Of a DNA stretch of 64,000 nt, positions 328 to 22,586 are shown one piece after another. The DNA is from a virus. The notes beneath the pieces were generated by a model. It made no database searches. It was not told the DNA's origin and saw only the letters and a program-made list of their open reading frames with translations. The translations under genes were made by a program, and so were the position numbers. The first letter of the stretch is position 1. Every line of letters starts with the position of its first letter. Where the stretch lies: positions 1-64,000 of IMG/VR virus record IMGVR_UViG_3300025660_000003. One strand, given 5' to 3'.

Positions 328-355
328 ACTACGGGGTGGGTCGGGAGTCTGAGCC
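328..355 (-). promoter_or_regulatory. Class I promoter-like motif GGCTCAG-N16-GTAGT, copy 1
   Basis: Minus strand GGCTCAG(355-349)-16 nt-GTAGT(332-328), just upstream of RBS and ATG 312. Confidence 0.8.
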
Positions 356-356
356 G

Positions 357-935
357 CTACCAGCGACGGTAGCTGCCCCGACCTTGGCTCCGGCCCCGGC
401 GGGGCTGCTGGTAGCTCTGGTTGCTGCGGTTCAGGTCTTCAGCCGTCTTCCAGCAGAGGTCGGCACAGACCTGGTTGCCGCCGGTCTTGACGCCCGTGTG
501 CTTGTTGGTGCGGACCTTGCTCACGAACTTCGGGGCTCCGCAGTGGCAGCGCGGGATGCTGACCACAGCCTTCCAGCAGTCCCGCATCCGCAGGATGACC
601 CGCTTGGTGATCTCGTCGATGACGCCCGTGCGGTTGACCCGCTTCTGAGCGGAGGCGATGCCACGCTCGCGGCCGTCTCGGCTGCGGTACATGACGCAGA
701 CCCGGATGGCGTCCTTGGCGACCGCTCTGGTCATGTCGCCTTCGATGGTCGAGTAGACCAGCACCCTGATCTTGCCGTCCGTGTTCGGGACCTCTCGGGC
801 GAACACTCGCTCCTTGGTTCCGTCGATGGTCGTCTCGATGAAGAGCGCCCTTGCGAACAGGGCCAGCAGTTCGGTCGCCAGCGTGCGGCGGTGGTCTCGG
901 TCGCGGGGGTCGTACTTGCTCGTCGGGTGGGTCAT
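357..935 (-). CDS. Hypothetical protein with C-terminal Cys cluster (possible Zn finger) and Arg-rich tail
   Basis: 192 aa; CHCG...CADLC; GGAG RBS; own class I motif. Confidence 0.8.
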   Translation of the reverse strand: MTHPTSKYDPRDRDHRRTLATELLALFARALFIETTIDGTKERVFAREVPNTDGKIRVLVYSTIEGDMTRAVAKDAIRVCVMYRSRDGRERGIASAQKRVNRTGVIDEITKRVILRMRDCWKAVVSIPRCHCGAPKFVSKVRTNKHTGVKTGGNQVCADLCWKTAEDLNRSNQSYQQPRRGRSQGRGSYRRW

Positions 936-964
936 CGCTTGCTCCGTATCGTTCGTCCACCTCC

Positions 965-992
965 ACTACTGACGGGGTTATGTTTCTGAGCC
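965..992 (-). promoter_or_regulatory. Class I promoter-like motif, copy 2 (divergent pair with copy 3)
   Basis: Minus strand GGCTCAG(992-986)-16 nt-GTAGT(969-965). Confidence 0.8.
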
Positions 993-1023
993 CCAAATCG
1001 CAGATAGTTTCCGCGAAAATAGG

Positions 1024-1051
1024 GGCTCAGAACGCAGGGCACGTCAGTAGT
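1024..1051 (+). promoter_or_regulatory. Class I promoter-like motif, copy 3
   Basis: GGCTCAG(1024-1030)-16 nt-GTAGT(1047-1051), then AAGGAG RBS and ATG 1069. Confidence 0.8.
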
Positions 1052-1068
1052 AGGGGTGAAGGAGAGAC

Positions 1069-2457
1069 ATGGCACGACGACCCCGAACGCTGGTGATCTT
1101 GAGCTACGGCCTTGGCTGGGACAGCACCGCCATCCTGGTCCGCTGGCTGCTCGACCCCTCCAGCCGAGACTTCGACCTCCGCGACCTCATCGTCGTCACG
1201 GCGATGACGGGGGACGAGTTCAAGTCGATGGGCGTCCTGGTCGAGAAGTACATCCTCCCCCTGATGCGAGCCCACGGAGTCCGCTTCGTGCAGGTCGCTC
1301 GCGGCGGGGCCAGCACCCGCGCTGGCGTCACCATCCTCGATGACTCCCGCTCCCCCACGAAGGTCTACCTCGACGGCGTCTACAAGCTGTCCGACGAGAT
1401 GCTGGAGTCAGCCACCGTCCCGCAGTTCGGTGGAGCCCGACTCTGCTCGCAGAAGCAGAAGGGCGTCCCCCTCGACTTCATCATCGACAAGCTGACCAAG
1501 GGCAAGCCCTTCCGACACGTCATGGGCTTCAACGCCGACGAGTTGAACCGGGTCGCCCGCGATGCCAGCTACTCCACCGTCACCCGCAAGTCCGAGTACC
1601 CGCTGGTCACCTGGGGCTGGGGCCGGGCGAAGCTCTCCGAGTACGTCCGCGAGTCCCTCGGTGTCGAGTGGGAGAAGAGCTGCTGCACCTTCTGTCCGTT
1701 CGCTGGCTCCTGCAAGGCCGAGAAGATGGAGGCCCTGACCTCCCGCTACACCGCCGAGCCCGAAGCCGCCGTGCTGGCCCTGACCATCGAGCGTCGGTCC
1801 CTGGCGATGAACGTCCGCCAGCCCCTCTTCGCCAAGACCTCCCTGTTCGACGTGCTGGCACAGACCGATCCCGCACTGGTCGCCCTCTTCGAGAAGGACT
1901 GGAACTCCGCGAAGGCCTGGAGCCTCTACCGCGTCCGCCGCAGCTTCCGTGGAGTCGGACAGGCCGTCCGCAGCCTGGAGTGCATCGCCACCGGCCCGAA
2001 GGCCCGGATGCTTGCCCGGCAAGCATCGTTCGGCGAGGTGGAGCACACCGCTGGTTCGCCCCGTGTCTTCGTGCAGCGCAAGGTCGAGGACGTGTTCCCC
2101 GTCAACGAGGATATGTACGTCGTCGCCCCGGCTGGTGTCGCCCCGAAGACCAACGCGATGTTCGACGCCTACTGGGTCCGCACCGGAGAGGTCGAGGCAG
2201 CCCGAGCGACCGGGGCCGATGAGCCCTGTCCGAAGGCACGGGCGATGAGCTTCGTGCTCCGGTACGTCGTGACCCACGCGGCCAACACCTTCACCAAGGG
2301 CGATGTCCAGCGAGCCGCCGGAGCCTCCGGGGTCTTCACCAAGGAGGCCGGAGCCGCCTACGACGAGCTGAAGGCCGAAGGCCGGTTCGGCAAGGTCGGC
2401 AAGCGCATGACTCTGGCCCCCGCCGCCTGGGGCTCAGTCGAAGCCTCACCCGCGTAG
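1069..2457 (+). CDS. PP-loop (PAPS-reductase/DndC-like) protein with Cys cluster and possible C-terminal winged helix
   Basis: LSYGLGWDSTA (SxGxDS PP-loop), TGDE, CSQKQK, GFNADE, EYPL, KSCCTFCPF motifs. Confidence 0.8.
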   Translation: MARRPRTLVILSYGLGWDSTAILVRWLLDPSSRDFDLRDLIVVTAMTGDEFKSMGVLVEKYILPLMRAHGVRFVQVARGGASTRAGVTILDDSRSPTKVYLDGVYKLSDEMLESATVPQFGGARLCSQKQKGVPLDFIIDKLTKGKPFRHVMGFNADELNRVARDASYSTVTRKSEYPLVTWGWGRAKLSEYVRESLGVEWEKSCCTFCPFAGSCKAEKMEALTSRYTAEPEAAVLALTIERRSLAMNVRQPLFAKTSLFDVLAQTDPALVALFEKDWNSAKAWSLYRVRRSFRGVGQAVRSLECIATGPKARMLARQASFGEVEHTAGSPRVFVQRKVEDVFPVNEDMYVVAPAGVAPKTNAMFDAYWVRTGEVEAARATGADEPCPKARAMSFVLRYVVTHAANTFTKGDVQRAAGASGVFTKEAGAAYDELKAEGRFGKVGKRMTLAPAAWGSVEASPA

Positions 2458-2458
2458 T
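2431..2458 (+). promoter_or_regulatory. Class I promoter-like motif, copy 4
   Basis: GGCTCAG(2431-2437)-16 nt-GTAGT(2454-2458); its TAG is also the upstream stop codon; AAGGAG RBS and ATG 2475 follow. Confidence 0.8.
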
Positions 2459-2474
2459 CGGAGCAAGGAGATCC

Positions 2475-2702
2475 ATGCCCAGGTACACCAAGGCGCAGAA
2501 GGAACGAATGACCCGCTGGGCAGCTCGGTGGTGGGCTCAGTGCTTCAACGAGTGTCCGCCCCGGCACCCGAATCGAGAGCTTCACGCTCGGGCCTACGGC
2601 TTCTGGATGAACCGCACCGACCCGCTGCTCTCCCTGGATCTTGACGCGCTGTACGCGAAGACCGACGAGCTGCTCAGCACGAGACCGCCTAGTCGTCCGT
2701 GA
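2475..2702 (+). CDS. Small hypothetical protein
   Basis: 75 aa, AAGGAG RBS, own class I motif. Confidence 0.75.
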   Translation: MPRYTKAQKERMTRWAARWWAQCFNECPPRHPNRELHARAYGFWMNRTDPLLSLDLDALYAKTDELLSTRPPSRP

Positions 2703-3081
2703 ACTCCGGTGCGGGGACGTGTTGCCCCCCGCTGAAGTAGCAGGCCGGTCCCGGCAGATGGAACGACCCGAGGTCGGTCTCCCACCAGGTATTCACCATC
2801 TCCAGGTCGAGCATCCCGTACAGGTCGTCGGGGAGGCTCCCTAGCCCCGGCTCGATGAACCACTCGCCCTCGTATGTCCCCTGCGAGTGGAAGCCCTGTA
2901 GCGCCCTGTGGACGGCTCTCTCGCGTGGTCCCTGGTCCAGTACGACCAGGATGATGCGGAGCTTGAACGGGGAGCCCACCTGAAGGTCTTGTAGCCGACG
3001 TGGTGGGTTTGACGACCGGCCGACCTTGAAGGCTCCGGTCGTGTGGGACTGGATCAGGTAGAGGTGCTCACCGCCCCGCAT
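2689..3081 (-). CDS. T5orf172/MUG113-like GIY-YIG domain protein
   Basis: LYLIQ...FKVGRSSNPPRRLQDLQVGSP...ERAVHRAL...GEWF; start moved to ATG 3081. Confidence 0.85.
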   Translation of the reverse strand: MRGGEHLYLIQSHTTGAFKVGRSSNPPRRLQDLQVGSPFKLRIILVVLDQGPRERAVHRALQGFHSQGTYEGEWFIEPGLGSLPDDLYGMLDLEMVNTWWETDLGSFHLPGPACYFSGGQHVPAPEFTDD

Positions 3082-3232
3082 CGGGCTTCTCCGGCTTCTT
3101 GAACCCATCGCACTTGCAGGCCGCCCCGTCGCACTCCTGCCACAACGGGAGGAGCGGACGGAACTCGCGTCCGTGCAGGTGGCGGGGGTGGCCGCAGGTA
3201 CAGACATCGGCCCACTTGGGGTCGGGCTTCAC
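3068..3232 (-). CDS. 54-aa Cys/His Zn-finger microprotein
   Basis: GTG 3232 directly after the thyX stop; CTCGH-x4-H...C-x4-CKC-x2-F; it is the tail of the 3068..3988 shadow ORF. Confidence 0.65.
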   Translation of the reverse strand: MKPDPKWADVCTCGHPRHLHGREFRPLLPLWQECDGAACKCDGFKKPEKPDAGR

Positions 3233-3234
3233 GG

Positions 3235-4203
3235 TTACTCGCCGAGCAGCTTGTCGAGCTTCGCCAGCAGCTCCTTGCGCTCCCGGCCCTTGCCGAGCTT
3301 GGAGCCTTCGATGGCCCGAGCGATGACCACCTTGCGGTTCAGCTCGTCGAGGTCCGGGAGGACCGCGTGCAGGAGGGTCCGAATCCCCTGCACGTCGAAC
3401 CGGGACAGGTACATGCCGTTGAGCCGGTAGTCCTCGAACGCCTCCCAGGCCCACGGCACCCACACCTTCACGATCTCGGCGATGGCCTCGGCGTAGGAGC
3501 GGATCTCCTTCTGGGCGTGGGGGTCGAGCCGCAGGCCCAAGAAGTGGAAGAGGTTGTGGAGGTCCATCTTCCAGTACGCCTCGGTGTAGGTGGAGAGGGG
3601 CAAGTCCTTCCGGGCCACCTCCTTCGCCACACCGAAGGCCAGCCGCTCCTCGTAGAGCGCCCTTGCGTGGCCGTGAAACTCCGCTTCGCGCATGGAGAGG
3701 TAGGTCGGGGCGCTCATGTTCTCCGGCCCGCCGATGTTCGACAGGGTGTCCCTGGTGCCCCGGAACCCGAAGCCTTTCGGCCTCTCGAAGCCGTCCGGCC
3801 AGTCGGTCACGACCCCGCTGGAGCCCTGCTTGTTGTCCTTGCTCTGCGACCGCCACTCGGTTGCGAGCTGTGCGGAGTCGATGGCGGGGGCGTAGCGGGT
3901 CGAGGACTCGTTCACGTTCGCCGTGCGGTGGCGAATCCACTGTCGCCAGGCGTCCATCGGCACCCGGACGCGGATCTTCAGCTCGCACATCTCGAACGGC
4001 GTCGTGTGGCGGCAGCGCATCAGGTAGCGGAGCAGGTGCCGGTTCGAGGCGTCGGTGCTGGTGTCCGCAGACCCGAAGAAGCTGACCCGGGCCGCGTCGA
4101 TGATGGAGCGGTCGTCGCCCATCACGTCGATGAGCTGGACGTGCCCATCGTTCAGGACAGGGATGGGGGTCGTGAACGGCAACAGGCGGTCAGGCAGACT
4201 CAT
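3235..4203 (-). CDS. thyX: FAD-dependent thymidylate synthase
   Basis: AARVS, HTTPFE, RQWIRHRTANVNESSTRY (RHRx7S), EVARKDLP, LRLDPHAQKEIR motifs. Confidence 0.97.
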   Translation of the reverse strand: MSLPDRLLPFTTPIPVLNDGHVQLIDVMGDDRSIIDAARVSFFGSADTSTDASNRHLLRYLMRCRHTTPFEMCELKIRVRVPMDAWRQWIRHRTANVNESSTRYAPAIDSAQLATEWRSQSKDNKQGSSGVVTDWPDGFERPKGFGFRGTRDTLSNIGGPENMSAPTYLSMREAEFHGHARALYEERLAFGVAKEVARKDLPLSTYTEAYWKMDLHNLFHFLGLRLDPHAQKEIRSYAEAIAEIVKVWVPWAWEAFEDYRLNGMYLSRFDVQGIRTLLHAVLPDLDELNRKVVIARAIEGSKLGKGRERKELLAKLDKLLGE

Positions 4204-4226
4204 GCGGGGCTCCCAGGGTGAGGTGG

Positions 4227-4256
4227 TGTTCTGTCTATACCCGCAGGGCTAGTAGA
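4227..4256 (+). promoter_or_regulatory. Class II (late-type) motif T-N7-CTAT-N13-GTAGA
   Basis: At the head of the spanin/neck operon; the same motif recurs before other late genes. Confidence 0.55.
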
Positions 4257-4277
4257 ACCCACCCTGGGGAGATGCAC

Positions 4278-4589
4278 ATGCCTGAGACACCACCGCCCGC
4301 CGCTCCCACCATCCCCTCGCCGGGGAAGTGGACTGATCTTGCGTTCAAGGTGCTGTCCATCCTGGTGGTCCCCTTGTGCCTGTGGGGGGTCAAGCTGGAA
4401 GTCGGCCAGGCTGTCCAGGACACGAAGATCGAGACCCTGGAAGTAGAGGTGGTCGCCGCCAAGGCCATCAAGGCTGGCGTCCAGGCCAACACGGTCACCC
4501 TCGGACGGGTAGAGGAGAAGCTCAATGGGACGAATGCCCGGCTGGACGAGATTCGGTCTGATCTGCGTCGCAGCCTGCCTCCTCGGTAG
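4278..4589 (+). CDS. Putative i-spanin (Rz-like): single TM helix plus coiled coil
   Basis: GGGGAG RBS; LAFKVLSILVVPLCLWGV hydrophobic segment then heptad-like region; 3' end overlapped by a lipoprotein gene in another frame. Confidence 0.6.
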   Translation: MPETPPPAAPTIPSPGKWTDLAFKVLSILVVPLCLWGVKLEVGQAVQDTKIETLEVEVVAAKAIKAGVQANTVTLGRVEEKLNGTNARLDEIRSDLRRSLPPR

Positions 4590-5193
4590 TTGCGGCGACC
4601 CCACCCCCGTCCTGGAGCCCAACCTCGACGAGCTACTCAGCGGGGATTTCGATCTCATGGACATGGATTCCGATGGCGTCATGGACGTTCGGGACGATTT
4701 CCCTGGCGACGACGACTCGTCTGGCGACGACGACTCGTCTGGCGACGATGACTCGGCCCCGCTGTTGACCGTGGACCCGGTGGCGGTAGCGAAGGCCTGG
4801 GGAGTAGAGCCCACCCCGAAGTCGGAGCCCGCCTACGAGCCGGACCGATCAGGGAAGAAGCACGCCCCGGTCCCGGAGCTGATGGTTGAGGCTGCTGCGA
4901 TGCAGGAGCAGCGGGTGGTGGTGAAGCGGACCGACGTGAAGACGGAGATCCTCGATACGGACGTTGAGGATCTGGCAGCGGCGATCAGAGCGGCCCGGTA
5001 CGCCCGGCTCGACGAGTACGCGCAGAAGTGGCACTGGAAGGTGGAGGCCCCGAGCGACTGGCTCGTCAGGCACCCCGAGAAGCTGGAGTGGTGGAAGGAG
5101 TGGGTGGAGCTGAAGCCGGAGGCCGATGCTCTTGCACTCGCTCGCGCGGCTGTTGCGGTCAAGGAAGCTGCTGGCGAGGTGCCTGGTGACTGA
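4525..5193 (+). CDS. Lipoprotein, putative o-spanin (Rz1-like), with Asp-rich repeats
   Basis: GAGGAG RBS inside the upstream gene; signal peptide with lipobox candidates VAAC18 / LGSC23; 65-nt overlap with the TM/coiled-coil gene. Confidence 0.6.
   Translation: MGRMPGWTRFGLICVAACLLGSCGDPTPVLEPNLDELLSGDFDLMDMDSDGVMDVRDDFPGDDDSSGDDDSSGDDDSAPLLTVDPVAVAKAWGVEPTPKSEPAYEPDRSGKKHAPVPELMVEAAAMQEQRVVVKRTDVKTEILDTDVEDLAAAIRAARYARLDEYAQKWHWKVEAPSDWLVRHPEKLEWWKEWVELKPEADALALARAAVAVKEAAGEVPGD
4703..4756 (+). repeat. 3 x 18-bp in-frame tandem repeat encoding GDDDSS
   Basis: ctggcgacgacgactcgt x2 followed by ctggcgacgatgactcgg. Confidence 0.95.
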
Positions 5194-5461
5194 ACCGACC
5201 AAGCGTGAGATCCAGGCTGCTTTCGGGCAACGGGTCTACGAGTATCACGACGACAAGGGGACGGTGTACTACTCGTTCACCCAGGCTCCGAACATCATCT
5301 CGCCCCCGAAGCGGCTCAAGATGCAGAACCGGATCGGTGTCCATCTGGTGAACTTCGTGACGCGACTTCGGCGATTGAGCGACTCCATGCAGGTGCCGGA
5401 GGGGACGGCGGGTAGGGTGCCCCGCGTTGAGCAACACCCCCCTCCCGGAAGAAAACCATGA
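5186..5461 (+). CDS. Hypothetical protein
   Basis: GTG 5186 overlaps the previous gene end; stop overlaps the next ATG (ATGA). Confidence 0.65.
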   Translation: MTEPTKREIQAAFGQRVYEYHDDKGTVYYSFTQAPNIISPPKRLKMQNRIGVHLVNFVTRLRRLSDSMQVPEGTAGRVPRVEQHPPPGRKP

Positions 5462-5823
5462 GCGACAACGGCACCCCCCAGCAGCCTCCCCAGCCCCACA
5501 TCTTCGGTGAGGTCGAGCCCGACGAGCTTCAGCGGCTCGCCGGTCTGAAGCAGCAGGCGGACGGCATCATTCACCAGATGGGCGTCAACCGCGTCAACGA
5601 GCACCGGCTGATCATGCAGCTCAGTCAGTGCGAGCAGGCGACCAACGAGATCGTGAAGGTCGCGGGCGAACGCTTGGGCATCCCCAATGGCACCGCATGG
5701 TCCGTGACCAGCGACGGCAAGGCCGTCTCGGTCGGTCCGCAGCCGACACCTCCGCAGATGCGGCCGAACCTGTCCGCCGTCCCGACGCCGGACGCGGGCG
5801 AGGACACGACGCCGGAGGCGTGA
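5458..5823 (+). CDS. Hypothetical protein with coiled-coil core
   Basis: 121 aa, coupled to the upstream gene. Confidence 0.75.
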   Translation: MSDNGTPQQPPQPHIFGEVEPDELQRLAGLKQQADGIIHQMGVNRVNEHRLIMQLSQCEQATNEIVKVAGERLGIPNGTAWSVTSDGKAVSVGPQPTPPQMRPNLSAVPTPDAGEDTTPEA

Positions 5824-5837
5824 AGGGCAGGGTGTAG

Positions 5838-7235
5838 ATGACGACCAACCAGTGGGAGAGCGCCGGGCCAGTTCCGCTGCCCCCCAAGAACACTCAGGTC
5901 GTCAGCCCGTTCACCATCGGGATGCTCGATTTGCGGTGGGAGGACCCAGCGGTCCTCGCCCGCAACGTCGGGTTCACTCTCGTTGGGGTGAACATCTACC
6001 GCTCCGAGGCGTCTGACAGAGGCCCCTTCCGCCGCATCAACGAGTTCCCCATCGGGGGCACGTTCTTTCGCGACCGCACGGACTACGCACGCATCGACCG
6101 GGAGGCCGTGCGGTGGGACTCGGACTGGCTCTACAAGGGCAACGCCCCGAACGACCGGCGATGGACCTTCTGCACCCGCAACGTCATCTCCAAGCGGTTC
6201 AACTCGGCCCCCAATCAGGACGCTGACGACGCCGACTCGCCCACCGACGTACAGCTCTTCATCAACGGCGAGGAGATCCCCGTCGCTGATGTCTTCGGCT
6301 CCACTCGCCAGGTCACCCTCGTCAACGCCCCCGGCTTCGACGCAGCCACGGAGACCATCGAGGACCCGGTGATCCCCACGGCTACCGACGTGGTGGAGAT
6401 CAGCTACTACACGCCGAAGAACCACGTGAAGTCCGGGCTGGACATGAACCTCTGGTACCGCTTCACGTCGGTTGCCATCGACGCCAGCACCCCCAGCGGC
6501 TACGTCGAGACCCCGCTGGACTGGTGCGAGCCCCGGAGCCTGGTCGAGGTCGAGTCACTCGACTGGATCTGGCGGGAAGCCATGCGGCGGAACGCCTGGA
6601 TTCTTCAGCAGGGCGGGGAGCGGGTGAAGCTCTTCATCCGCAAGACATCCGGCGTCCCCTGCGATTGCCAGATCGAGGACAAGACCAGGGAGTACAGCAA
6701 GCAGCCCTCGCAGCGGTGCCTGGTGTGCTTCGGCTCCGGGTTCGTGGGGGGCTACGAAGGCCCCTACGAGGGCATCATCGTCCCCGACGATGCAGAGCGG
6801 CGGATCTCGCAGGCGGTCGGTGGTCGTCGCAAGGAGCACACCTACGAGGTCTGGACCGGCCCCAGCCCGCTGTTGACGCAGCGGGACTTCGTGGTCAAGC
6901 AGACCAACGAGCGGTACAGCATCGGGCCGGTACGACGGCCCAGCCATCGGGGCAACCTGATGCAGCAGCACTTCACCATCGCCTACTTCGACCAGGGCGA
7001 CATTCGCTACAAGGTGCCCATCTACGGGACCACGGAGCTTGCCTGGCCGCAGACCAGAGGTCAGCAGACACCTCGCGTCTTCTCTCCCCGGCCCGTGGAC
7101 CAGGCCCTTGAGGGTCTGCCCCAGTGGCCGGAAGGTGCTGACGGCGACAACCCGCAGATGACTGAGAAGTCGAACATCCCGGATGCACGGGAGCGGAGAG
7201 GCCGTTCCCGCGTCTGGGAGAACACTGAATACTGA
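5838..7235 (+). CDS. Neck / head-closure-like protein with Zn ribbon and N-terminal FN3/Ig-like modules
   Basis: GGERVKLFIRK...CDC...CLVCFGSGFVGGY...WTGPSPLLTQRDFVV...ERYSIGPV; lies upstream of the tail genes. Confidence 0.65.
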   Translation: MTTNQWESAGPVPLPPKNTQVVSPFTIGMLDLRWEDPAVLARNVGFTLVGVNIYRSEASDRGPFRRINEFPIGGTFFRDRTDYARIDREAVRWDSDWLYKGNAPNDRRWTFCTRNVISKRFNSAPNQDADDADSPTDVQLFINGEEIPVADVFGSTRQVTLVNAPGFDAATETIEDPVIPTATDVVEISYYTPKNHVKSGLDMNLWYRFTSVAIDASTPSGYVETPLDWCEPRSLVEVESLDWIWREAMRRNAWILQQGGERVKLFIRKTSGVPCDCQIEDKTREYSKQPSQRCLVCFGSGFVGGYEGPYEGIIVPDDAERRISQAVGGRRKEHTYEVWTGPSPLLTQRDFVVKQTNERYSIGPVRRPSHRGNLMQQHFTIAYFDQGDIRYKVPIYGTTELAWPQTRGQQTPRVFSPRPVDQALEGLPQWPEGADGDNPQMTEKSNIPDARERRGRSRVWENTEY

Positions 7236-9991: not shown

Positions 9992-10017
9992 TCTCCCTAT
10001 CCCTGGCAGGAGGTAGA
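9989..10017 (+). promoter_or_regulatory. Class II motif T-N7-CTAT-N12-GTAGA
   Basis: tgatctccCTATccctggcaggagGTAGAtg, abutting ATG 10017. Confidence 0.45.
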
Positions 10018-11210: not shown

Positions 11211-11218
11211 GAGCGAGC

Positions 11219-11994: not shown

Positions 11995-12095
11995 ACCTCC
12001 TCTCCGCACCGGAGATGGTCAGACAGACGACAGGATGAGTCCCAGCTTGTGCTTCCCCTGATGGGGACCTGCCTCCCGCGCTTCGGCGGGGATGG
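11995..12095 (+). promoter_or_regulatory. Structured leader of the sheath gene: two CC-[TCYC...GRGA]-TGG hairpin units
   Basis: Stems TCTCCG/CGGAGA (12001-12015) and TCCC-G-CGC[TTCG]GCG-GGGA (12074-12092), each flanked by CC and TGG; same element at 29232-29349. Confidence 0.6.
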
Positions 12096-12157
12096 ACACG
12101 ATGAAGCCATACGGACTGATGCTCGAACCCTGTTGACCACTCTCGTGAGGTGCCCTG

Positions 12158-15100: not shown

Positions 15101-17467
15101 AAGCTGAACATCGGCGAGGTGGCGAAGAGCTACCGGCTGACGCAGGGCGGCGTGAACGTCCACGACCGGCTGATTCTTCGCAACCGCATCCACCCCGGCG
15201 GCTTCTCGATGAGCGCCCTGGACGCGGTGGATCAGTGCCAGCTCCTCGTGGGTGCGGGCTCCGGCAACGCCAAGGCGGGTCTGGCGAACGCGGACTTCGG
15301 TGAGGCGGCCCACGGTGCCACGGTCCACGGGGCCACGATGGTCGGCCGGGTCGGCTTCGCAGGCGGCACGAACACGGCGGGCGAGCCGCAGGTGACCTTC
15401 TACGACGGCACGGGGGCACAGCCCGCGAACAACGTCCTGGCGTTCACCCTCGACGGCGTTCCCTTCAGCGTGACCTTCGCGGCGTCGGCAACGGGCACGG
15501 TGAACCTGCTGGGCATCGCGGCTGCTGCGGGCGACCGCATCATCCTCCAGATCCAGACGGCTCTGGCTGCTCTGCCCGGTGCGCCCTTCGGCAACCTGGC
15601 AACCATCCAGGGTGCGTTCATCTGCCGGGCAGAGGGAGCGGGCATCCGGCTCACCAGCACGACGATGCACGAGAGTGGCGTCATCGTGATGGGTGGCGGT
15701 TCGGCCAACGCGGTCCTCGGGTTCACCGAGGGCACGGTCGCGGCCCGGCAGCTCGTCACGGCGGGAGAGCTGGCGTCGGCACTGAACTCGCACCGGGAGA
15801 ACAACATCCCGGACTTCCTGCACGACTTCTCGGCCATCAACGCGGCGGCTGCTGAGTTCGCTGCGCAGGCGGTGGCCAAGGTGGTCGAGGACACGGCCTC
15901 CCGGAAGTTCCTGACCATCGCCTCGGCGGGTCCGGCCACGACCGACTACGGCACCGGCTCCACCATCGCCCTGCTGGGAGCCACGACGCGCTCCTGGCTC
16001 TTCGTGGGCACGGGCATTGACGAGTTGAGCAACGCCGGTTCGGCGGGAGAGGCGGCCCTGAACGGGTACTTCGTCACCTCCTCCGATGGTGTGAACGGCT
16101 CCGGCTCGGCGGACACTTCGGTGCTCAACGCGGGCACCGGACAGGATGGGACCATCGGCCAGACCTACCGCGACGCGGTGACCGGCCTGACGTTCACCAT
16201 CCTGCCTCGCGGCTGGCACGACAACCCGGCGGGTCCCTGGATCGCCTACCCGGCGGCGGCGACGTTCCGGTTCGCGGTCAGCCAGACGGTCACGACCGAC
16301 GCGAACATCCCGGTGCGCTCCATCCCCGGTCTGGAGATGAAGGTCGCGAACACGGCTGATGTGGGTGTGAGCGACACGGCCATCGTGCAGACGTACCCGC
16401 GAGGGGGCGAAGAGCCCGCCATCGGGGACATCTACTACGCCAGCTACGTCTACCAGAAGCAGGATTTCACGACGGGCTTCTTCACGAAGATGTCGTCCAT
16501 CATCGCGGCCTACGGTGCCATCCACCCGGAGAACCCGGTGTCGCTGGCGGCCTACCTGGCGATGATCAACGGTGCCGTCCTGGTGGGCGTCAAGCAGGTG
16601 CCCCGGGCGACCGGGACCAACTTCGCCAGCGTCACGACCTACGTGGCGGCGGTCACGGAGCTGGAAGGCGTCCTGCCCGGCCACATCGAGCCGGACCTGA
16701 TCACACCCCTGCTGGGTAGCTCCACGCAGCTCTTCCAGTTGCTCGCTCGCAGCAACGACATCCAGAGCAGCATCCGCTACCGCAGCGAGCGCACCAGCAT
16801 CATCGGGATGTCGGCGGGCGCGACGGAGGCCCAGGCGAAGACCCTGGCCGGTGTGATGTCGAACGACCGGATGCGGATGGTCTACCCGGACATGGCCCTC
16901 ATCGACATCGAGGAGGACGACGGGACCAGCAAGGAGCACCTCATCGACGGCCCGATGCTGGCCGCGATGCTGACCGGCTCCGTGGTCAGCCCGAACTACG
17001 ACGTGGCGTCCCCCTGGACGCGGCGGAAGTTGATCGGGCCGAGCCAGCTCGCCAGGACGCTCGACGCGGTGCAGCAGAACCAGCTCGCCCAGGCGGGCGT
17101 CACGGTGCTGGACGACAAGCCCCCCTTCATCCGGGTGCGACACGGTCTCACGACCGACATGACCAGCATCCTGACGAAGACGCCGACCGTCCGGCTCATC
17201 GCCGACCACGTCCAGCAGCAGAGCCGGTCCACGCTGGACCAGTTCATCGGGCTGAAGTTCCTGCCCGGCGTCCTCTCGCAGGTCGAGGGGCGGCTGGCCA
17301 AGATGTTCCAGACGCTCGTGAAGCAGCAGATCATCGCCATCTACACCGGCCTCAAGGCCCAGGTGGATGCCGAGGACCCGACGACGGCCAACGTGGAGGC
17401 CTTCTACCAGCCGGTCTTCCCGCTGCTCTACATCGTCCTGACGTTCCACCTCCGCGCGAGCCTGTAG
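12158..17467 (+). CDS. Tail sheath protein, greatly expanded (1769 aa)
   Basis: N-terminal YAPPNVYT; C-terminal sheath core (HGLTTD...VRLIADHV...FIGLK...YQPVFPLLYIVLTF); roughly 1300 aa of inserted beta-rich modules. Confidence 0.93.
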   Translation: MSFPGLNYAPPNVYTRTEFENPLQGAIESLKVPIFIGEGNEYLSQVDLEVVRGSSATIDQRIVGEDMTGRAVASVSATGVVTRSAFDGVLNRVQVQNLPVVDGTGRGTTSNSRSDVTVTLNGLPVVVSALDGASGILTLAQSPALGDLVRVSYFFNREDTLVTDDLSEQVTLLAAIIQASVGIKDVNAPTPGTTTIDLHADVLGPTGQVIVPANNVLNLIVDGVTAAITLTPKADYTMQQIANVISAAGVGTLTGATFVNNHGESTLSLNSDHDLTVMEGTANALLGLVTGSVSVRRKAFYTFNGPIVDGTNGGVTTTDPSHVTVKVDGVQVIPVTVDGATRAITLAQAPEAGSTVTVTYWFNTWQDTYDHLAHVNVTSVERVGDVPGGSQYTQEADFVLQNDRVMWGTAATVVSGITTTGSELLDDTQVTPTLVDNRTFMSPCLAVTSAQGAVSTSDFQLPLNPTLGNGRSTSLGQSLFQSISNNRIGVPVNRPDVVDVYWGFSVADALVRGKVEAIKVEGSVITLPVEVPVGASVFASFYHNMIVDMEYTLAVVLPGISGVGTYTIADSGGNSVYTPTFDNSTKSAGLTGIEIVFPSGSELTPDLHFEGGAGTGFTGPIEEVVTVTLATTQDTPAKFTVSGPSPYAFMPGESDLIAMTINGDTVLPVAGTDMDVLSGGGLGVMAHFVSNEIAYPDGIDFDVADFTGGDEQVILTIDAVEVTATVESLANQTIDAWVASINEAADGHQGVAGVGAPTTTSFELAAGSRSAVDNYYAGWRVVVGSGAGAITAGTVGTVLSYVGATGIITLTAIIDGANAFVAADPYRIYNPDTMAEIKGATRFNGPIDLSGAAGFDTLTMRFNCLATAGAVNITAAVAALHSSVSVLASALNTAFRGASGDDILTPPAGGSPIAVVIGGDVLLSGLDFIFTADGNGRLTVVVQLPGLSTAGFLEFVSQGAAVDDFCNLAGFDAGTAGSGQMKLNIGEVAKSYRLTQGGVNVHDRLILRNRIHPGGFSMSALDAVDQCQLLVGAGSGNAKAGLANADFGEAAHGATVHGATMVGRVGFAGGTNTAGEPQVTFYDGTGAQPANNVLAFTLDGVPFSVTFAASATGTVNLLGIAAAAGDRIILQIQTALAALPGAPFGNLATIQGAFICRAEGAGIRLTSTTMHESGVIVMGGGSANAVLGFTEGTVAARQLVTAGELASALNSHRENNIPDFLHDFSAINAAAAEFAAQAVAKVVEDTASRKFLTIASAGPATTDYGTGSTIALLGATTRSWLFVGTGIDELSNAGSAGEAALNGYFVTSSDGVNGSGSADTSVLNAGTGQDGTIGQTYRDAVTGLTFTILPRGWHDNPAGPWIAYPAAATFRFAVSQTVTTDANIPVRSIPGLEMKVANTADVGVSDTAIVQTYPRGGEEPAIGDIYYASYVYQKQDFTTGFFTKMSSIIAAYGAIHPENPVSLAAYLAMINGAVLVGVKQVPRATGTNFASVTTYVAAVTELEGVLPGHIEPDLITPLLGSSTQLFQLLARSNDIQSSIRYRSERTSIIGMSAGATEAQAKTLAGVMSNDRMRMVYPDMALIDIEEDDGTSKEHLIDGPMLAAMLTGSVVSPNYDVASPWTRRKLIGPSQLARTLDAVQQNQLAQAGVTVLDDKPPFIRVRHGLTTDMTSILTKTPTVRLIADHVQQQSRSTLDQFIGLKFLPGVLSQVEGRLAKMFQTLVKQQIIAIYTGLKAQVDAEDPTTANVEAFYQPVFPLLYIVLTFHLRASL

Positions 17468-17469
17468 CC

Positions 17470-17512
17470 CCTAGGCGGGGTCAGGGCATGAGCCTCTGAC
17501 CCCGCATCTAGG
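17470..17512. terminator. Strong hairpin between convergent genes (likely bidirectional terminator)
   Basis: GCGGGGTCAG(17475-84)/CTGACCCCGC(17496-505), inner GGC-ATGA-GCC, outer CCTAG/CTAGG; no U-tract. Confidence 0.7.
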
Positions 17513-17514
17513 CC

Positions 17515-17832
17515 TCAGAGGATGCTCACGGTCGTCTTGGTCTCGACCTTGAGCTTCGCAGCGACCTTCAGCACCGCGAAGACGGGCGGCTTGCGACCGT
17601 AGGAGTGCTTCGGAACCGCCGAGAGTTCATCCACCTTCTCCTGGAGCCGGGCCTTGTCGGTGGTGACCCAGTGCTCGAAGGTGTCGGTGGTGACGGTGTG
17701 GGCGGGGTAGCCGTGCCCAGGATTGGTGCGGCTCCGCTCGTCACCCTCAACGTGGTGGGAGTCGGTCTTGTAGATGTGGACCGCGAAGTGCGGCCCCTCG
17801 GGGATGTCGGCGGGGGTGTTCACCCTTTGCAT
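17515..17832 (-). CDS. Hypothetical protein
   Basis: AGGAG RBS before ATG 17832; contains GDERSRTNPGHGYP. Confidence 0.75.
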   Translation of the reverse strand: MQRVNTPADIPEGPHFAVHIYKTDSHHVEGDERSRTNPGHGYPAHTVTTDTFEHWVTTDKARLQEKVDELSAVPKHSYGRKPPVFAVLKVAAKLKVETKTTVSIL

Positions 17833-17852
17833 TTCAGTGCTCCTGTTCGTGT

Positions 17853-18791
17853 TCACACGCGGTTCAAGATCGCCCCACCGCTGGCGGGGGTCAGATCGAA
17901 GATGCGATCCTCTGCCTCGCGGAGTAGCTCCGTCAGCCGCTCGACCTCTTCGGCGTGGGCCTCTGCCCTGGCGGCAAGCACGTCCTTCGCCTGACGCATT
18001 TCAGTGTTCGCGGCGTTCCGCTCATCCATCGCCTCATGCCACCGCTTCTCGGCAACTTCGGTCTCCTCACGGGCGGCCTTGACCTCCAGCTTCATCTTGT
18101 CGTAGTCCACCATCGCAGCCCGATACTTCGCGGCCTGCCTGCCTGCGACCTTCACGTCGGTGCGGGCCTTCCCCTTGGGGAAGTAGTGGCCCCACACCCC
18201 ATGGGACGAGACGACCTTGGAGACCTCGTGGGAACAGAGGGTCAGCCTGGTCCTTCGACCCGCCGCTCGCCATTCCTCGTACCAGACATCGTCGTCAGGC
18301 CCCAGGTAGCTCAAGTGGGGGAACAGGAACCGAAGCTCCGGCCGTCTGAGGACGTTCCCTTTCCTGATGGGCTCCGTCATGTAGGGGCGGATCGACTGGC
18401 TCTCACGCTCGCCAGCCCACCAGTGCCCGCCCTTGTCCTGACGCACGCTGGTCAGGCTGTCCGGCGAGAGGTGGCCCTCGACCACCTTGTTGGTGCGGGT
18501 GGATGACTCCTGCGGTAGTCCGATCTCCGGCAGATCGAACATCCGGGGGTTCGGCTTCGGGAAGTCCCGTGTCTGTCGATAGGTCTCCATCTGGGCCTTC
18601 GTGAGCCACAGCTCCTCGACCACTCCTGTGTGGAGGTTGAACAGGTGGTGGCTGACGTAGACGTTCATGTCCGCCGACGTGATGTACTCCACGTCATCCA
18701 GCGTGACCCGCGACACCACCTGAGCGTAGTGCTGCGTCACTCGATAAGACGAGTCGGCTCGAAGGACGAATGCGCGGGTCTCATGGTCCAT
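17853..18791 (-). CDS. Hypothetical protein with C-terminal coiled coil, probably leaderless
   Basis: ATG 18791 lies 6 nt after the GTAGT of class I copy 5, with no SD. Confidence 0.7.
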   Translation of the reverse strand: MDHETRAFVLRADSSYRVTQHYAQVVSRVTLDDVEYITSADMNVYVSHHLFNLHTGVVEELWLTKAQMETYRQTRDFPKPNPRMFDLPEIGLPQESSTRTNKVVEGHLSPDSLTSVRQDKGGHWWAGERESQSIRPYMTEPIRKGNVLRRPELRFLFPHLSYLGPDDDVWYEEWRAAGRRTRLTLCSHEVSKVVSSHGVWGHYFPKGKARTDVKVAGRQAAKYRAAMVDYDKMKLEVKAAREETEVAEKRWHEAMDERNAANTEMRQAKDVLAARAEAHAEEVERLTELLREAEDRIFDLTPASGGAILNRV

Positions 18792-18797
18792 GGGGCT

Positions 18798-18825
18798 ACT
18801 ACGCTCGCAGTCGTGCATCTGAGCC
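18798..18825 (-). promoter_or_regulatory. Class I promoter-like motif, copy 5
   Basis: Minus strand GGCTCAG(18825-18819)-16 nt-GTAGT(18802-18798). Confidence 0.8.
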
Positions 18826-19074
18826 CTAGACGTTCAGGGCTTCCAGAGCCCTTCTGACGAGCTTCCAGACCGGGTAGCTGAGCCGTGGGTAGTCGAGGAC
18901 ATCGGCGGTCCTGGAGACCGCCTTGGGGCTCCCCTTGCGCATCAGACGGATGGCGTAGTTGCCTCGCCTCGCCTGCTTGCCAGTCCAGCTCGTGTTGTGG
19001 ATGAGCATCCGGCCGATCTCGAAGGCTTTGCTCTCCCGGCCTCCGGGCCACATCTCGATCTTGACGACGAGCAT
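18826..19074 (-). CDS. Small basic hypothetical protein
   Basis: 82 aa, coupled to the upstream gene (TGATG). Confidence 0.75.
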   Translation of the reverse strand: MLVVKIEMWPGGRESKAFEIGRMLIHNTSWTGKQARRGNYAIRLMRKGSPKAVSRTADVLDYPRLSYPVWKLVRRALEALNV

Positions 19075-19337
19075 CAGGTGATGCCGCCGGGGATGTTGAA
19101 GATGCGCTTCAGCGTGTCCCGGATCACGTCGGGGTCACGGACGATCTGAAAGCACGCCCCTGCTGAGATATGGGTGGTGGTGTCGCAGAGGTCCTGGCCC
19201 TGCACCACGATGATCTCGCCCTTGCGCATCAGCTCGTTGTCGGCCTCGGAAAGCAGGCAGCCCACGTCGTAGTCCGGGTGGACCTGCATCGGTCGGGCTT
19301 TGTCCCCGTCGATCAAAGTGACGTTGATGGCAGGCAT
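19074..19337 (-). CDS. Small hypothetical protein
   Basis: 87 aa from ATG 19337, which overlaps the ATPase stop; GGAG upstream. Confidence 0.7.
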   Translation of the reverse strand: MPAINVTLIDGDKARPMQVHPDYDVGCLLSEADNELMRKGEIIVVQGQDLCDTTTHISAGACFQIVRDPDVIRDTLKRIFNIPGGIT

Positions 19338-21781
19338 CAGACCGGCTCCTCCGGCTCCATGGCCTTGCGGCGGTGCTCTGCGCCAACGCTCGTCGCCAGC
19401 GTCGTGAGAGCCGAGCATTCCAGCATGGCCTCGAACTCTGGCTTCGTCTCCACCGTCCAGTGCCAGAAGGGCGTCTTGCCGTTGCGGACTCTGTATAGGG
19501 CGGTCGTGCAGATGTGCTGGAGCAATCGCTTCTGGGCCTCCATCTGGAAGGCGGGGCTGTAGCCGTACAGGGTGCTTTGGATGGTCTCGTGATCGACAAA
19601 GACGGTGATGTCGATCACGACACGATCCTCATCCGCGTCGTTGATGGATACGGTGAGCAGTCGTTTCGACGGCCAGTCCGGGGGGAGATCCTTCGCCGTC
19701 ACCTGATGGATCTGCGGGCTGACCTGATCTGCGCTCGCCGTGTCTGTCGCCCCACCGCCCTTGTTGGTGGATGGCTGGGCCTTTGGCCCCAGCGGGCGGA
19801 GCTGGATCGACTGCTCCAGAGCAACACCATCCGGTGTGGGCACCGAGACGTAGATCACAGAGGGGATGTCCTTCTGGCTGATGTTCCCCCTCACCTTGAG
19901 GCGGGCTTCCCCATACGAGTCCGTCCATGTGATCGACGCTGGTGTCGAGGTCCACGCACTACGCGGCATGACGTGAAAGGGCGTGGTCCCATCCGGGACG
20001 GCGTTGCAACCGAGCCGGAGAGTGATGGTTCCGCCGACGTGCGCTCGAAGCGCCTCCTTCGAGTGCGTGATGAGCCGGAACGGCCCCTTGGGGTTGGGGA
20101 AGGTCGGGTTCTGTGAGCGGGCCTTGGACACCTGGCTGGTCGTACTTCTGAGGAATCGGACGTGGGCGTGGGCGTTCTGCGTGAACGCATCGGACCCCGG
20201 AGACTTGAACCCCTTGACCCTTTCGGCCTCGTAGCGGTCGCGGGCCACTGCCAGTACACCGGCATCACCCGAGATGCGGGTCTGGATTGCCTTCTGCATC
20301 CGCCGGACGATCTCGTGGCTGGTTCGCAGCGTCCGGTCTGACGAGACCATCTCGCGCTGGAGACCTCTGGACAGCGTCGAGAGGTCCACGTACAGGATCA
20401 TGTACTTCCGCAGGCTGCCGATGATGGACCTGTTCCCCATGTACCAGTCTGGGGTCGCCAGATGCACCGTGAAGGTGTCCTGCATGATGATGACCTGCTC
20501 TGGAATCCTGCCGTTCCACGTGGTCAGGGGCCGTTCAAGTACCCGCCCCTTGCGGCGCTTACCAGCAGCGTTGCCATCGTTCTTGGTCTTGGTGGGCAGC
20601 TTGTAGCGGTCATCCTGTGCCTCGACATCTGTCCTGGCGATTCTCTTCGTGATGAACGCCTTGACGCCCACCTTCTCGAAGGCTCCAGAGCGGCTTTCAA
20701 ACTCGATCAACCAGTCGAAGGACGCCTCGAAGCAGTTGAGCTTGCTGGTGTTGTTCTGGGCGCGGTGGGGTCGCGCCATGTTGTCGAGGATTCGGGTGAT
20801 GCCGCCTTTACACACCTTCCTTGTCGCCCCCCGAACCTTGTCGGTGGCCTTCGTGCGTTTGCGGGGCTTCTCCGACACATTCCGAAGTTCCACCAGGAGG
20901 TACGGAAGGAACGGTTCTGGGCAGATGCGCTCGAAGTCCCGGTAGGGGGAGTTCCCGTGGACGTTGATGAGCTGGGGGGAGATCCCCTGGTACTCAAAGT
21001 GGGTGATGGCTGTCCCGGGTCTGAACGGGACCCCGGTGGATGGCACCCAGTTCTTGTCCCGCTTGCGCTCACGGGCTTCTGCGGCCAGATCCCAGTGATA
21101 CGCCTCCTCTGGCGTCAGCCACGGGACCTGACCCTCGTTGTTCGTGAGGGTCAGCCAGTGGGTCTCCTCGGCCTTCGTCCAGGGCACCTTGACGATGAAC
21201 ATGATGGAAACGCGGTCGTCGTCACCAGGCTCCAGGAGATCAGGGCTCCGGCGGGTGAGGATCAGCGTGCTGTCGCTCCACCGAAGCGTCTTTGCGCTCC
21301 CGTCGTGCCAAGTGCCGATGGTGTAGGGCTTCGCGGTCTTGGCGTTCTTGTGGACTCCACCCAAGGTCTGAGGGACCTGTGCGTGCGTCTGACCGCAGCC
21401 GTAGTCCCGGTAGATCACGTTGTCCAGCGTGTCGCCTGGCGTGAGGGCGACCACGATGTTCTCTGCGAGTTCGGCTCTGCGGTCACTGGATACCCCGGCC
21501 AAGCCCGCGACCCCAAACTGACGCAGCACCGCTTCCTGGGGGGAGCCCGGAGCATCCTCACCCCGCAGCAAGGCCCGCTCCACACCGAGTTCGATCATGG
21601 CGTCCTGCGAGTTCTGCACCCGCTCGCCGAGCTTGAGGACGGCACTGTTGCTGCCCTCAATGGTGGCCCGGTGTCCGAAGGGGACGAAACGGTAGCCGTG
21701 GTCTGCTACCAGCAAGTCGGCAGCCACCCTGGCTGCCGAGCTGGTCCGGGCCATCATCAGATGGCGAAGAGCTTCGATCAT
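19337..21781 (-). CDS. GHKL (HATPase_c; MORC/MutL/TopoVI-B-like) ATPase-domain protein
   Basis: ERVQNSQDA (N box), DYGCGQ (G1 box), NAK...IGTWHDGS (degenerate G2 box); 814 aa; AGGAG RBS; own class I motif. Confidence 0.75.
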   Translation of the reverse strand: MIEALRHLMMARTSSAARVAADLLVADHGYRFVPFGHRATIEGSNSAVLKLGERVQNSQDAMIELGVERALLRGEDAPGSPQEAVLRQFGVAGLAGVSSDRRAELAENIVVALTPGDTLDNVIYRDYGCGQTHAQVPQTLGGVHKNAKTAKPYTIGTWHDGSAKTLRWSDSTLILTRRSPDLLEPGDDDRVSIMFIVKVPWTKAEETHWLTLTNNEGQVPWLTPEEAYHWDLAAEARERKRDKNWVPSTGVPFRPGTAITHFEYQGISPQLINVHGNSPYRDFERICPEPFLPYLLVELRNVSEKPRKRTKATDKVRGATRKVCKGGITRILDNMARPHRAQNNTSKLNCFEASFDWLIEFESRSGAFEKVGVKAFITKRIARTDVEAQDDRYKLPTKTKNDGNAAGKRRKGRVLERPLTTWNGRIPEQVIIMQDTFTVHLATPDWYMGNRSIIGSLRKYMILYVDLSTLSRGLQREMVSSDRTLRTSHEIVRRMQKAIQTRISGDAGVLAVARDRYEAERVKGFKSPGSDAFTQNAHAHVRFLRSTTSQVSKARSQNPTFPNPKGPFRLITHSKEALRAHVGGTITLRLGCNAVPDGTTPFHVMPRSAWTSTPASITWTDSYGEARLKVRGNISQKDIPSVIYVSVPTPDGVALEQSIQLRPLGPKAQPSTNKGGGATDTASADQVSPQIHQVTAKDLPPDWPSKRLLTVSINDADEDRVVIDITVFVDHETIQSTLYGYSPAFQMEAQKRLLQHICTTALYRVRNGKTPFWHWTVETKPEFEAMLECSALTTLATSVGAEHRRKAMEPEEPV

Positions 21782-22536
21782 GGGGTCTCCTGTTCCGCAC
21801 TACGGGCGTCGGTTTCGGACTGAGCCCCGCAGTCAACGGTCGGTCCTTCGATCAGCCAGGACCTCGCGGGGCCATGGTCGTTGCGCTGGTCCCAGCCGGG
21901 GCGGTTCTCGGTCAGCCACTTGCGGGCCTCTGCCTCAGCATCGCGGCGAACGGCGTTGTTCGCCCTGTCCATCGCCTGCCTGGTCGGCATCGGCATGTCG
22001 TCGGGGAACTCCAGGTAGTAGCTGGTGTAGTGCTCGTAGTGGTTGATGTTGTCGCGGGAGTGCGGGTACTCCACGGGGAATGCCTGGATGGAGCCCTTGG
22101 CGTCGAGCACCTGGACGGTGCCGTGCTTCGGCCCCAGCTCCTTCAGCCGGACGGAGTAGCGTTGCCCGATGCGGACATCGACCGGCTCCCAGCCGTGGAT
22201 GTACCACCAGATGCGCTGGATGCCCTTGTCGTCGAACAGCCCGTTGTGGCCGTTGCTGGTGGACTTGGCTTCCCACCCCTCCGGGAGCACCACGGAGAGC
22301 GTGTTGCACCCGCCGACCATCTGCGTGATCCGGCCCCCACCTTCGAGGATCTCCATGCCCCACAGCTCCAGGGCTTCGCGGGAGCCGTCCTTGTCCGGGA
22401 TCTTCCCGGACGCAGCTCGCTGCGACATCTCGACGGCGACTCCGACCCCCTCGCCGGGCTTGCAGCCACCCATGGTGATGCCCATCGCGGCCATCTGGAA
22501 CGGATTGTCGTCGCGGTCAACTGTCTTGCGGCCCAT
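21778..22536 (-). CDS. Hypothetical protein
   Basis: Start moved to ATG 22536 (AAGGGAG RBS, class I motif upstream); 252 aa. Confidence 0.75.
   Translation of the reverse strand: MGRKTVDRDDNPFQMAAMGITMGGCKPGEGVGVAVEMSQRAASGKIPDKDGSREALELWGMEILEGGGRITQMVGGCNTLSVVLPEGWEAKSTSNGHNGLFDDKGIQRIWWYIHGWEPVDVRIGQRYSVRLKELGPKHGTVQVLDAKGSIQAFPVEYPHSRDNINHYEHYTSYYLEFPDDMPMPTRQAMDRANNAVRRDAEAEARKWLTENRPGWDQRNDHGPARSWLIEGPTVDCGAQSETDARSAEQETP
21799..21826 (-). promoter_or_regulatory. Class I promoter-like motif, copy 6
   Basis: Minus strand GGCTCAG(21826-21820)-16 nt-GTAGT(21803-21799), within the 3' end of the upstream gene. Confidence 0.8.
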
Positions 22537-22558
22537 AGGTCTCCCTTGTTCATCAGGG

Positions 22559-22586
22559 ACTACGCCCGCCGGGATTCTTCTGAGCC
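22559..22586 (-). promoter_or_regulatory. Class I promoter-like motif, copy 7
   Basis: Minus strand GGCTCAG(22586-22580)-16 nt-GTAGT(22563-22559). Confidence 0.8.

Follow-up and report, generated by a model that had tools for sequence, protein, structure and literature searches.

Several described systems provide the framework for the element analyzed here. The middle and late promoters of Bacillus phage SPO1 are read by the phage sigma factors gp28 and gp33/gp34. Extracytoplasmic function (ECF) promoters are represented by the TGAAAC-N16-CGTA sites of B. subtilis sigma W and the GGAAC-N16-18-GTT sites of M. tuberculosis SigH/SigE. Phage T4 combines a MotA box with a sigma70 -10 box and AsiA at its middle promoters, and uses TATAAATA with gp55, gp33 and the gp45 clamp at its late promoters. 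The stoperators of phage L5 and the start-associated sequences of Cluster K phages are contiguous sites of 13 base pairs (bp); the former occur throughout both genome arms, the latter at a fixed 3-8 nucleotides (nt) from the start codon. We have analyzed a two-box motif, GGCTCAG, 16 nt, GTAGT, here termed the class I motif, in the first 64 kilobases (kb) of IMG/VR virus record IMGVR_UViG_3300025660_000003 (positions 1 to 64,000, the whole stretch analyzed, here called the window). The record is a viral contig of 141,696 bp with a G+C content of 65.6% (G000; other G numbers designate related contigs). The motif is likely to represent a phage-specific promoter class that is used by a bacterial RNA polymerase (RNAP) together with an alternative sigma-family factor, most likely one encoded by the phage.

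An earlier note on this DNA had listed seven exact copies of the motif in the window. All seven were recovered at their coordinates and strands (Table 1), while shuffled sequences contained 0.01 copies on average and never reached seven; allowing two mismatches yielded extra matches only at chance level. The full contig holds 20 exact copies and one near-copy (reversed control 0), and a weight-matrix scan returned 21 sites with scores of 23-47; no score fell in the gap from 12 to 23, and the highest control score was 8.4. In an unbiased tally of all two-box words, controlled with block shuffles, the class I motif ranks first in the contig. The spacer is as invariant as had been noted: it measures 16 nt in 20/20 contig copies, with zero copies at N10-15 or N17-22, and it is likewise always 16 nt in four other lineages. 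The extended consensus reads gGGCTCAGAa, about 12 free bases, C(C/A)GTAGTAGgggtGaA, and some 13 spacer positions carry little or no information. Position 22 is a C in 33 of 47 copies, and the base preceding GTAGT (position 23) is either C (21/47) or A (24/47). Conservation does not end with GTAGT but extends over the start region, strong copies reading AGGGGTGAAGGA.

The boxes are conserved over a diverging background. CheckV estimates the completeness of the contig at about 27%, and nucleotide comparison placed five further IMG/VR contigs around it, giving a combined cover of more than 250 kb: G001 and G004 reach upstream of the contig, G005 still further, and G002 reaches downstream. The full genome is estimated at roughly 500 kb, about half of which is thus covered. 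Each of the ten G000 sites with orthologous DNA in G001 is kept there. Across 14 orthologous pairs (G001, G003, G004) the two boxes are 100 and 99% identical, whereas identity drops to 70% in the spacer and 63-67% in the flanks; the comparison carries an ascertainment bias, the sites having been chosen by motif. This is well illustrated by the copies at 2431..2458 and 22559..22586, which retain both boxes in G001 while 7 and 8 of the 16 spacer bases differ, respectively.

The copies are not randomly placed. The earlier note had proposed to scan the full genome; in the contig and its relatives, the copies are intergenic or located in the 3' end of a gene, co-oriented with the downstream gene and close to gene starts. 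In six related contigs with a coding density of 94%, 33 of 48 exact copies are intergenic and the remaining 15 lie in the 3' end of a gene on the same strand. Truly antisense copies are absent (0/48), two apparent cases being gene-call errors. A qualifying start codon is present within 60 nt at 80% of the sites, compared to 23.5% of random positions. In the window, the gene starts indeed lie within the 6-30 nt downstream that had been claimed, two copies overlap the 3' end of the upstream coding sequence, and one of them supplies its stop codon (TAG at 2455-2457 within GTAGT, ending gene 1069-2457). Back-to-back divergent pairs occupy gaps without any other signal, once in the window (965/1024) and three more times further along the contig. 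The 73-kb tail/structural block at 24.2-97.6 kb holds no class I copy at all, in agreement with the previous remark that none precedes a structural gene. Pfam and PHROGs gave no usable annotation for the downstream genes in the window; the single match is a weak, partial one of gene 1069-2457 to the PAPS reductase family in PHROGs (E 4e-4). The label "non-structural" consequently follows from where the genes lie and from the lack of class I copies in the tail block, as the downstream window genes have no known function. Elsewhere in the contig, operons for PolA and helicase lie downstream of class I copies, which fits an early or middle class, and we infer this timing for class I genes as a whole.

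The distance to the start codon yields a prediction of the transcription start. Counting ATGs that open reading frames of at least 40 codons from the end of GTAGT, over 106 non-identical sites in nine contigs, we found a sharp peak at an offset of exactly 6 nt (13/106 sites; offsets 5, 7 and 8 account for 1, 1 and 0) and a second, broad mode at 20-27 nt with a GGAG-type ribosome-binding site in front. G006 on its own shows the same two-mode pattern. Since the peak at offset 6 implies leaderless mRNAs, the simplest reading is a transcription start 7 nt past GTAGT, which falls inside the range of 5-8 nt predicted earlier. The other transcripts would carry a leader of about 15-20 nt, starting from a conserved purine after AGGGGT. 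In the window, the mRNA of gene 17853-18791(-) is predicted to be leaderless because its ATG follows GTAGT by exactly 6 nt.

A start 7 nt past GTAGT places GTAGT at -11 to -7 and GGCTCAG at -34 to -28, a predicted arrangement with the geometry of the sigma70 family. In line with this geometry, a 7-nt and a 5-nt box are separated by exactly 16 nt in each copy and are co-oriented with the downstream gene. The earlier comparison of the fixed spacer of about 16 nt with ECF and other alternative-sigma promoters therefore stands, in that the geometry is of the sigma70 family and the sequence is not that of a housekeeping promoter. Recognition of a sigma70 -10 box by the host primary sigma needs an A at -11. 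The class I motif has a G at this position and lacks the TTGACA-like -35 box and the TAnnnT of group 1 promoters; a consensus scan for sigma70-type sites found none in 1-31 kb. The rigid spacer of group 4 (ECF) promoters is present. Membership of the canonical ECF promoters is not established, however, because the conserved -35 box has no AAC; many copies do show AAC after GGCTCAG, but about 4 nt too near the -10 box.

It is highly improbable that the motif is no promoter but an oriented repressor operator or roadblock resembling the L5 stoperators, or an mRNA or translation signal resembling the Cluster K sequences. An abundance of asymmetric, oriented copies at gene junctions and in the short gaps between genes would suit such sites. 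The divergent pairs, though, fill intergenic regions that have no other promoter-like signal, the motif is absent from the structural operons, including the 73-kb block, and there are two boxes with a spacer of variable sequence. In addition, a variable distance to the start codon combined with a sharp leaderless peak fits a transcription start and not a fixed translation signal; the two boxes lack complementarity, and a search of the window against Rfam gave no match. Based on placement, orientation, the strict spacer, the conservation of the boxes over diverging spacers and the absence from structural operons, the class I motif is very probably a promoter.

Very little weight can likewise be given to a phage-encoded RNAP, single-subunit or divergent multisubunit, residing in the unsequenced part of the genome. 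Conservation running beyond GTAGT into the start region recalls T7-type promoters, and about half of a genome of some 500 kb remains to accommodate such a gene. However, T7-type promoters are contiguous, whereas the class I boxes are split by about 13 low-information positions and form no contiguous block of about 23 bp. PF00940 has no match in the contig, a weak test given that the control genomes were unmatched too, and neither Rpb1_2 nor another canonical beta-prime domain was found among eight relatives, two of them complete genomes. Sigma70_r2, Sigma70_r4_2 and T7-type polymerase searches of the whole contig found nothing real, in agreement with the previous statement that the window encodes no sigma factor or RNAP. 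Of the three readers that had been considered earlier (a phage-encoded or a hijacked alternative sigma factor, or a phage RNAP), the phage RNAP is the least supported.

In distant relatives the same architecture recurs with the 16-nt spacer, one box being altered in all copies together (Table 1). Reversed controls were empty where counted, and the G012 count was compared with shuffled DNA only. Because dispersed copies change in concert, these variants imply a sequence-specific, trans-acting reader that has co-evolved with each lineage. This reader could be an alternative sigma of the host, for example an ECF or stress sigma, without any phage sigma being involved, which we consider unlikely. 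The geometry and strict spacer would suit any group 3/4 sigma, the 141.7-kb contig contains no sigma gene, and the candidate phage protein discussed below does not co-vary cleanly with the -35 box. Yet the architecture, with its concerted box changes, recurs in phage lineages of 55-66% G+C from different samples, a recurrence for which a factor carried along by the phage offers the easier explanation. Scanning candidate hosts for the motif, as the earlier note proposed, was carried out with a 15-base form over 185,579 species genomes; the matches listed are scattered single ones, with no genome among them showing a cluster, and an identification of the host by this route was abandoned. Phages of this group moreover encode several sigma-like proteins. 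A phage-encoded sigma-family reader of the motif is accordingly the somewhat more probable option.

Three kinds of sigma-like protein are encoded by the related contigs. The best candidate reader is a protein of 480 amino acids (aa) from G005. It has 52 homologues, all annotated as hypothetical, on contigs of up to 536 kb, and a 281-kb contig carries a copy with 89% identity. Its AlphaFold model (mean predicted local distance difference test score 84.9) shows two winged-helix domains of the Mrr_N-like type in its N-terminal part, and a sigma2-like and then a sigma4-like domain in its C-terminal half. Foldseek retrieved mostly sigma factors with that half, among them sigma E, AlgU and SigH with probabilities of 0.99-1.0. 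VIA-align superimposed residues 394-480 on region 4 of T. thermophilus sigma A (Z 10.1, root-mean-square deviation 2.8, 78 residues) and residues 248-474 on the ECF sigma SigL (Z 8.8, 169/174 residues aligned), bearing in mind that Z values under about 13 can come from a common arrangement alone in helical proteins. At the sequence level, Sigma70_r4_2 is matched by 26 of the 32 members of the family, with scores that stay under the curated cut-off (best E 5e-5), and the candidate contains the helix-turn-helix of region 4. Sigma70-like promoters are located upstream of its gene in three lineages, the arrangement to be expected if an early gene product activates the following class. The gene has a conserved, hairpin-forming 5' leader just ahead of the ribosome-binding site. 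It shares one intergenic region with a divergently oriented gene for a 348-aa protein, and the pair is kept in G011 and G019. This neighbour was set aside as a candidate, its matches to sigma folds being too weak to use (Foldseek E 0.3, VIA-align Z at most 5.7); a profile search against solved structures found nothing for it.

A number of observations weigh against this assignment and, in part, against the promoter reading itself. At roughly 20% of the sites a clear start codon within 60 nt is missing. One of these, the copy at 121208-121235 (+) (L011:17208-17235), is intragenic, with the next gene starting 147 nt further on, and could act as an internal promoter or have no function. The 480-aa gene is absent from the contig and known only from the contigs of relatives, which span different regions of the genome. 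Pfam Sigma70_r2 matches no member of the family, and among the eight relatives, two of them complete, no protein reaches its cut-off. The sigma2-like domain is thus seen in the predicted structure only, with a Z value within the chance range for helical proteins. The recognition helix of the sigma4-like domain is identical in G005 and G011 despite their different -35 boxes, and departs strongly in G019, where the box has a single-base change, so that co-variation between helix and -35 box is uninformative or mildly contradictory. Finally, G013, G014, G015, G017, G018, G020 and G021 carry a homologue yet show no enrichment of GGCT.A.-N16-GTAGT. We therefore name the 480-aa protein as the reader only tentatively. 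The broader proposal built on it is equally doubtful: a new phage sigma family, with two Mrr_N-like winged-helix domains and divergent sigma2-sigma4 domains, would occur across a clade of phages of 400-540 kb and read their class I promoters. In that case, boxes and factor would have diverged together, giving no fewer than five natural variants (GGCTCAG, GGCTCAA, GGCTTAG and GGCTTAY with GTAGT; GGCTTAG with GTAGA).

The third kind of sigma-like protein, of 200 aa, has two tandem region 4 helix-turn-helix domains (Sigma70_r4 E 1.5e-16) and is highly conserved in the relatives. Its gene clusters with those for a clamp-loader subunit and a NusG-like (NGN+KOW) protein, at L058:1180-3091 (-) in G005, at 95.7-98.3 kb in G004, and also in G011, G019 and LR745208.1; the last encodes a second, 269-aa paralogue. 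This protein, or a MotA-style appropriator, might act as a phage activator that binds GGCTCAG and recruits the host polymerase. Its conserved location beside NusG-like and clamp-loader genes is consistent with this, as is a distance of about 22 bp between the box centres, which would put both on the same helix face. We nevertheless regard such an activator as quite improbable: GTAGT has no A at -11, which the host primary sigma needs, the two recognition helices of the tandem protein stay the same in lineages with different -35 boxes, and a never-varying spacer is more typical of a rigid sigma2-sigma4 reader. In G015, a 394-aa protein (L243:1165-2349, -) has a C-terminal half that looks, by eye, like a clear ECF-type sigma containing both region 2 and region 4. 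Pfam matches its region 2 weakly (E 0.004), and no homologue was present among the contigs of this lineage examined. These phages may encode several sigma factors.

Taken together, we propose the following mechanism. RNAP carrying an alternative sigma factor would bind GGCTCAG as -35 box (-34 to -28) and (C/A)GTAGT as -10 box (-11 to -7), and would begin transcription at the purine 7 nt past GTAGT. Some transcripts would have very short leaders, starting just ahead of the Shine-Dalgarno sequence, while others would be leaderless mRNAs with AUG as their first bases. Class I promoters would drive accessory genes without known function and probably replication genes, early or in the middle of infection, and tail and other structural operons would use a different, CCTATA-type signal. 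The 480-aa protein of the relatives, encoded behind a host-type promoter, would be the best candidate for the reader.

Table 1. Coordinates of class I copies, downstream genes, lineage variants, candidate genes and other features (contig G000 unless another contig is named)
Feature	Position	Strand	Remarks
Class I copy	328..355	-	ATG of gene 1-312(-) 15 nt past GTAGT; kept in G001
Class I copy, left arm of back-to-back divergent pair	965..992	-	Start codon of downstream gene 29 nt past GTAGT
Gene downstream of copy 965..992	357-935	-	192 aa, no known family
Class I copy, right arm of divergent pair	1024..1051	+	Full extended consensus, top score 47
Gene downstream of copy 1024..1051	1069-2457	+	462 aa; start codon 17 nt past GTAGT
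Class I copy within 3' end of gene 1069-2457	2431..2458	+	Start codon of downstream gene 16 nt past GTAGT
Gene downstream of copy 2431..2458	2475-2702	+	75 aa
Class I copy directly past stop of gene 18826-19008	18798..18825	-	
Gene downstream of copy 18798..18825	17853-18791	-	ATG exactly 6 nt past GTAGT, without Shine-Dalgarno
Class I copy within 3' end of gene 21778-22536	21799..21826	-	Start codon of downstream gene 17 nt past GTAGT
Gene downstream of copy 21799..21826	19337-21781	-	814 aa, no known family
Class I copy, head of minus-strand unit	22559..22586	-	Start codon of downstream gene 22 nt past GTAGT
Gene downstream of copy 22559..22586	21778-22536	-	252 aa
Strong hairpin between convergent genes	17468..17514	.	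-40.2 kcal/mol, z -4.84
Variant GGCTCAA with GTAGT	G006		36 copies
Variant GGCTCAA with GTAGT	G011		7 copies
Variant GGCTTAG with GTAGT	G019		8 copies
Variant GGCTTA(T/C) with GAGTAGT	G016		32 copies; complete 436-kb genome
Variant GGCTTAG with GGGTAGA	G012		14 copies
Candidate reader gene	G005 61573-63015 (L060:232-1674)	+	480 aa
Divergent neighbour of candidate reader gene	G005 L080:266-1312	-	348 aa
ThyX gene	3235-4203		
Neck/tail block	4.5-17.5 kb		
Tail operon	24-97 kb		73 kb, genes up to 3,682 aa
Replication genes	beyond 100 kb		SNF2 helicase, DnaB helicase, methylase, PolA
Variant two-box element	24153..24179	-	24 nt upstream of gene 23031-24128(-)
Host-type promoter	24216..24244	+	TTGACA, 17 nt, TAGGGT; ATG of MerR-family gene 7 nt downstream
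MerR-family gene	24252-24665	+	
CCTATA signal	60673-60678 (window); L009:2790-2795, L009:12460-12465, L010:579-584, L012:13646-13651		

In the window, the copies at 22559, 21799 and 18798 head one minus-strand unit that runs from 22586 down to 17515, and the hairpin at 17468..17514 is likely the terminator closing it. Between the 75-aa class I gene and the ThyX gene lies a gene with a GIY-YIG-related T5orf172/MUG113 domain (2689-3081, -; E 3e-7), which may be a free-standing homing endonuclease.

Other promoter-like signals are present in these phages. The existence of GGTTCAC-N15-GTAGA at 24153-24179 (-) was confirmed, but it is not the degenerate class I copy for which it had been taken: it belongs to a separate, conserved variant two-box type, GGGGTYCAYC, 11-12 nt, GGGTAGR. 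The rare form GGGGTTCACC, 11 nt, GGGGTAGA occurs twice in the contig, here and at L012:12680-12712 (+), at 136.7 kb. The element at 24153-24179 is kept in G001 and G004, and its GTAGA box equals the main -10 variant of the distant relative G012. The host-type promoter of the MerR-family gene is kept in G004 (TTGACA-N17-TAGCTT, 7 nt, ATG), and the mRNA of this gene is predicted to be leaderless as well. A further signal, (a/g)gCCTATA(c), precedes tail genes, and others that look late, by 23-46 nt, often with GGT(A/G)AG about 10 nt past it; related forms occur at 4242, 27346 and 28270. It probably marks a late promoter class.

No close cultured relatives of the phage were found by database comparison. 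The nearest database phage is LR745208.1, an unannotated, uncultured genome of 485 kb with 50% identity in PolA, which does not contain GGCTCAG-N16-GTAGT. A literature search on the motif and on promoters of huge phages returned nothing relevant, and to our knowledge nothing has been described on the scheduling of genes in uncultured phages of about 500 kb. The class I motif provides a testable promoter class with a predicted start, natural lineage variants and named candidate readers. It allows genes without known function to be sorted into a non-structural regulon, and suggests that these phages depend on a host core polymerase redirected by factors of their own. The motif is a possible supply of orthogonal promoter/sigma pairs for high-G+C hosts, and, should the new sigma family be real, it would provide ready-to-use orthogonal sigma/promoter pairs with the added ability to produce leaderless mRNAs.

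In comparison with known systems, the L5 stoperators and Cluster K sequences share with the class I motif the many oriented, asymmetric and conserved short copies at gene junctions in phages of high-G+C hosts; the present phage, too, probably infects a high-G+C bacterium, one in which leaderless mRNAs are in use. What sets the class I motif apart is its two-box structure with an unconstrained spacer of 16 nt, its occurrence in divergent pairs and the two modes of distance at which start codons follow. The likeness to ECF promoters extends to the rigid spacer of about 16 nt, a short -10 box beginning with (C)GT and a predicted start 6-8 nt downstream, and the predicted fold of the candidate reader aligns end to end with SigL. 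Here, however, the -35 box has no AAC at the right position and the copies belong to a phage instead of a stress regulon; no anti-sigma gene was seen. Similar to T4, the predicted phage-specific promoter classes separate non-structural from structural genes, and the clamp-loader/NusG-like/sigma4-like cluster of the relatives is reminiscent of the way T4 couples late transcription to replication. T4 middle promoters nevertheless keep a host-type -10 box, which the class I motif does not, and its late promoters consist of a single box, to which the CCTATA signal of the tail genes is the closer analogue. A phage-specific alternative-sigma promoter is a long-established kind of system, of which SPO1 is an example. 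As in SPO1, two-box promoters unlike the host consensus would mark temporal gene classes, and a phage sigma made from host-type early promoters would redirect the host core polymerase. The sequences are unrelated to those of SPO1, and the candidate reader of the class I promoters combines two Mrr_N-like domains with a sigma part in which region 2 is not detectable by sequence.

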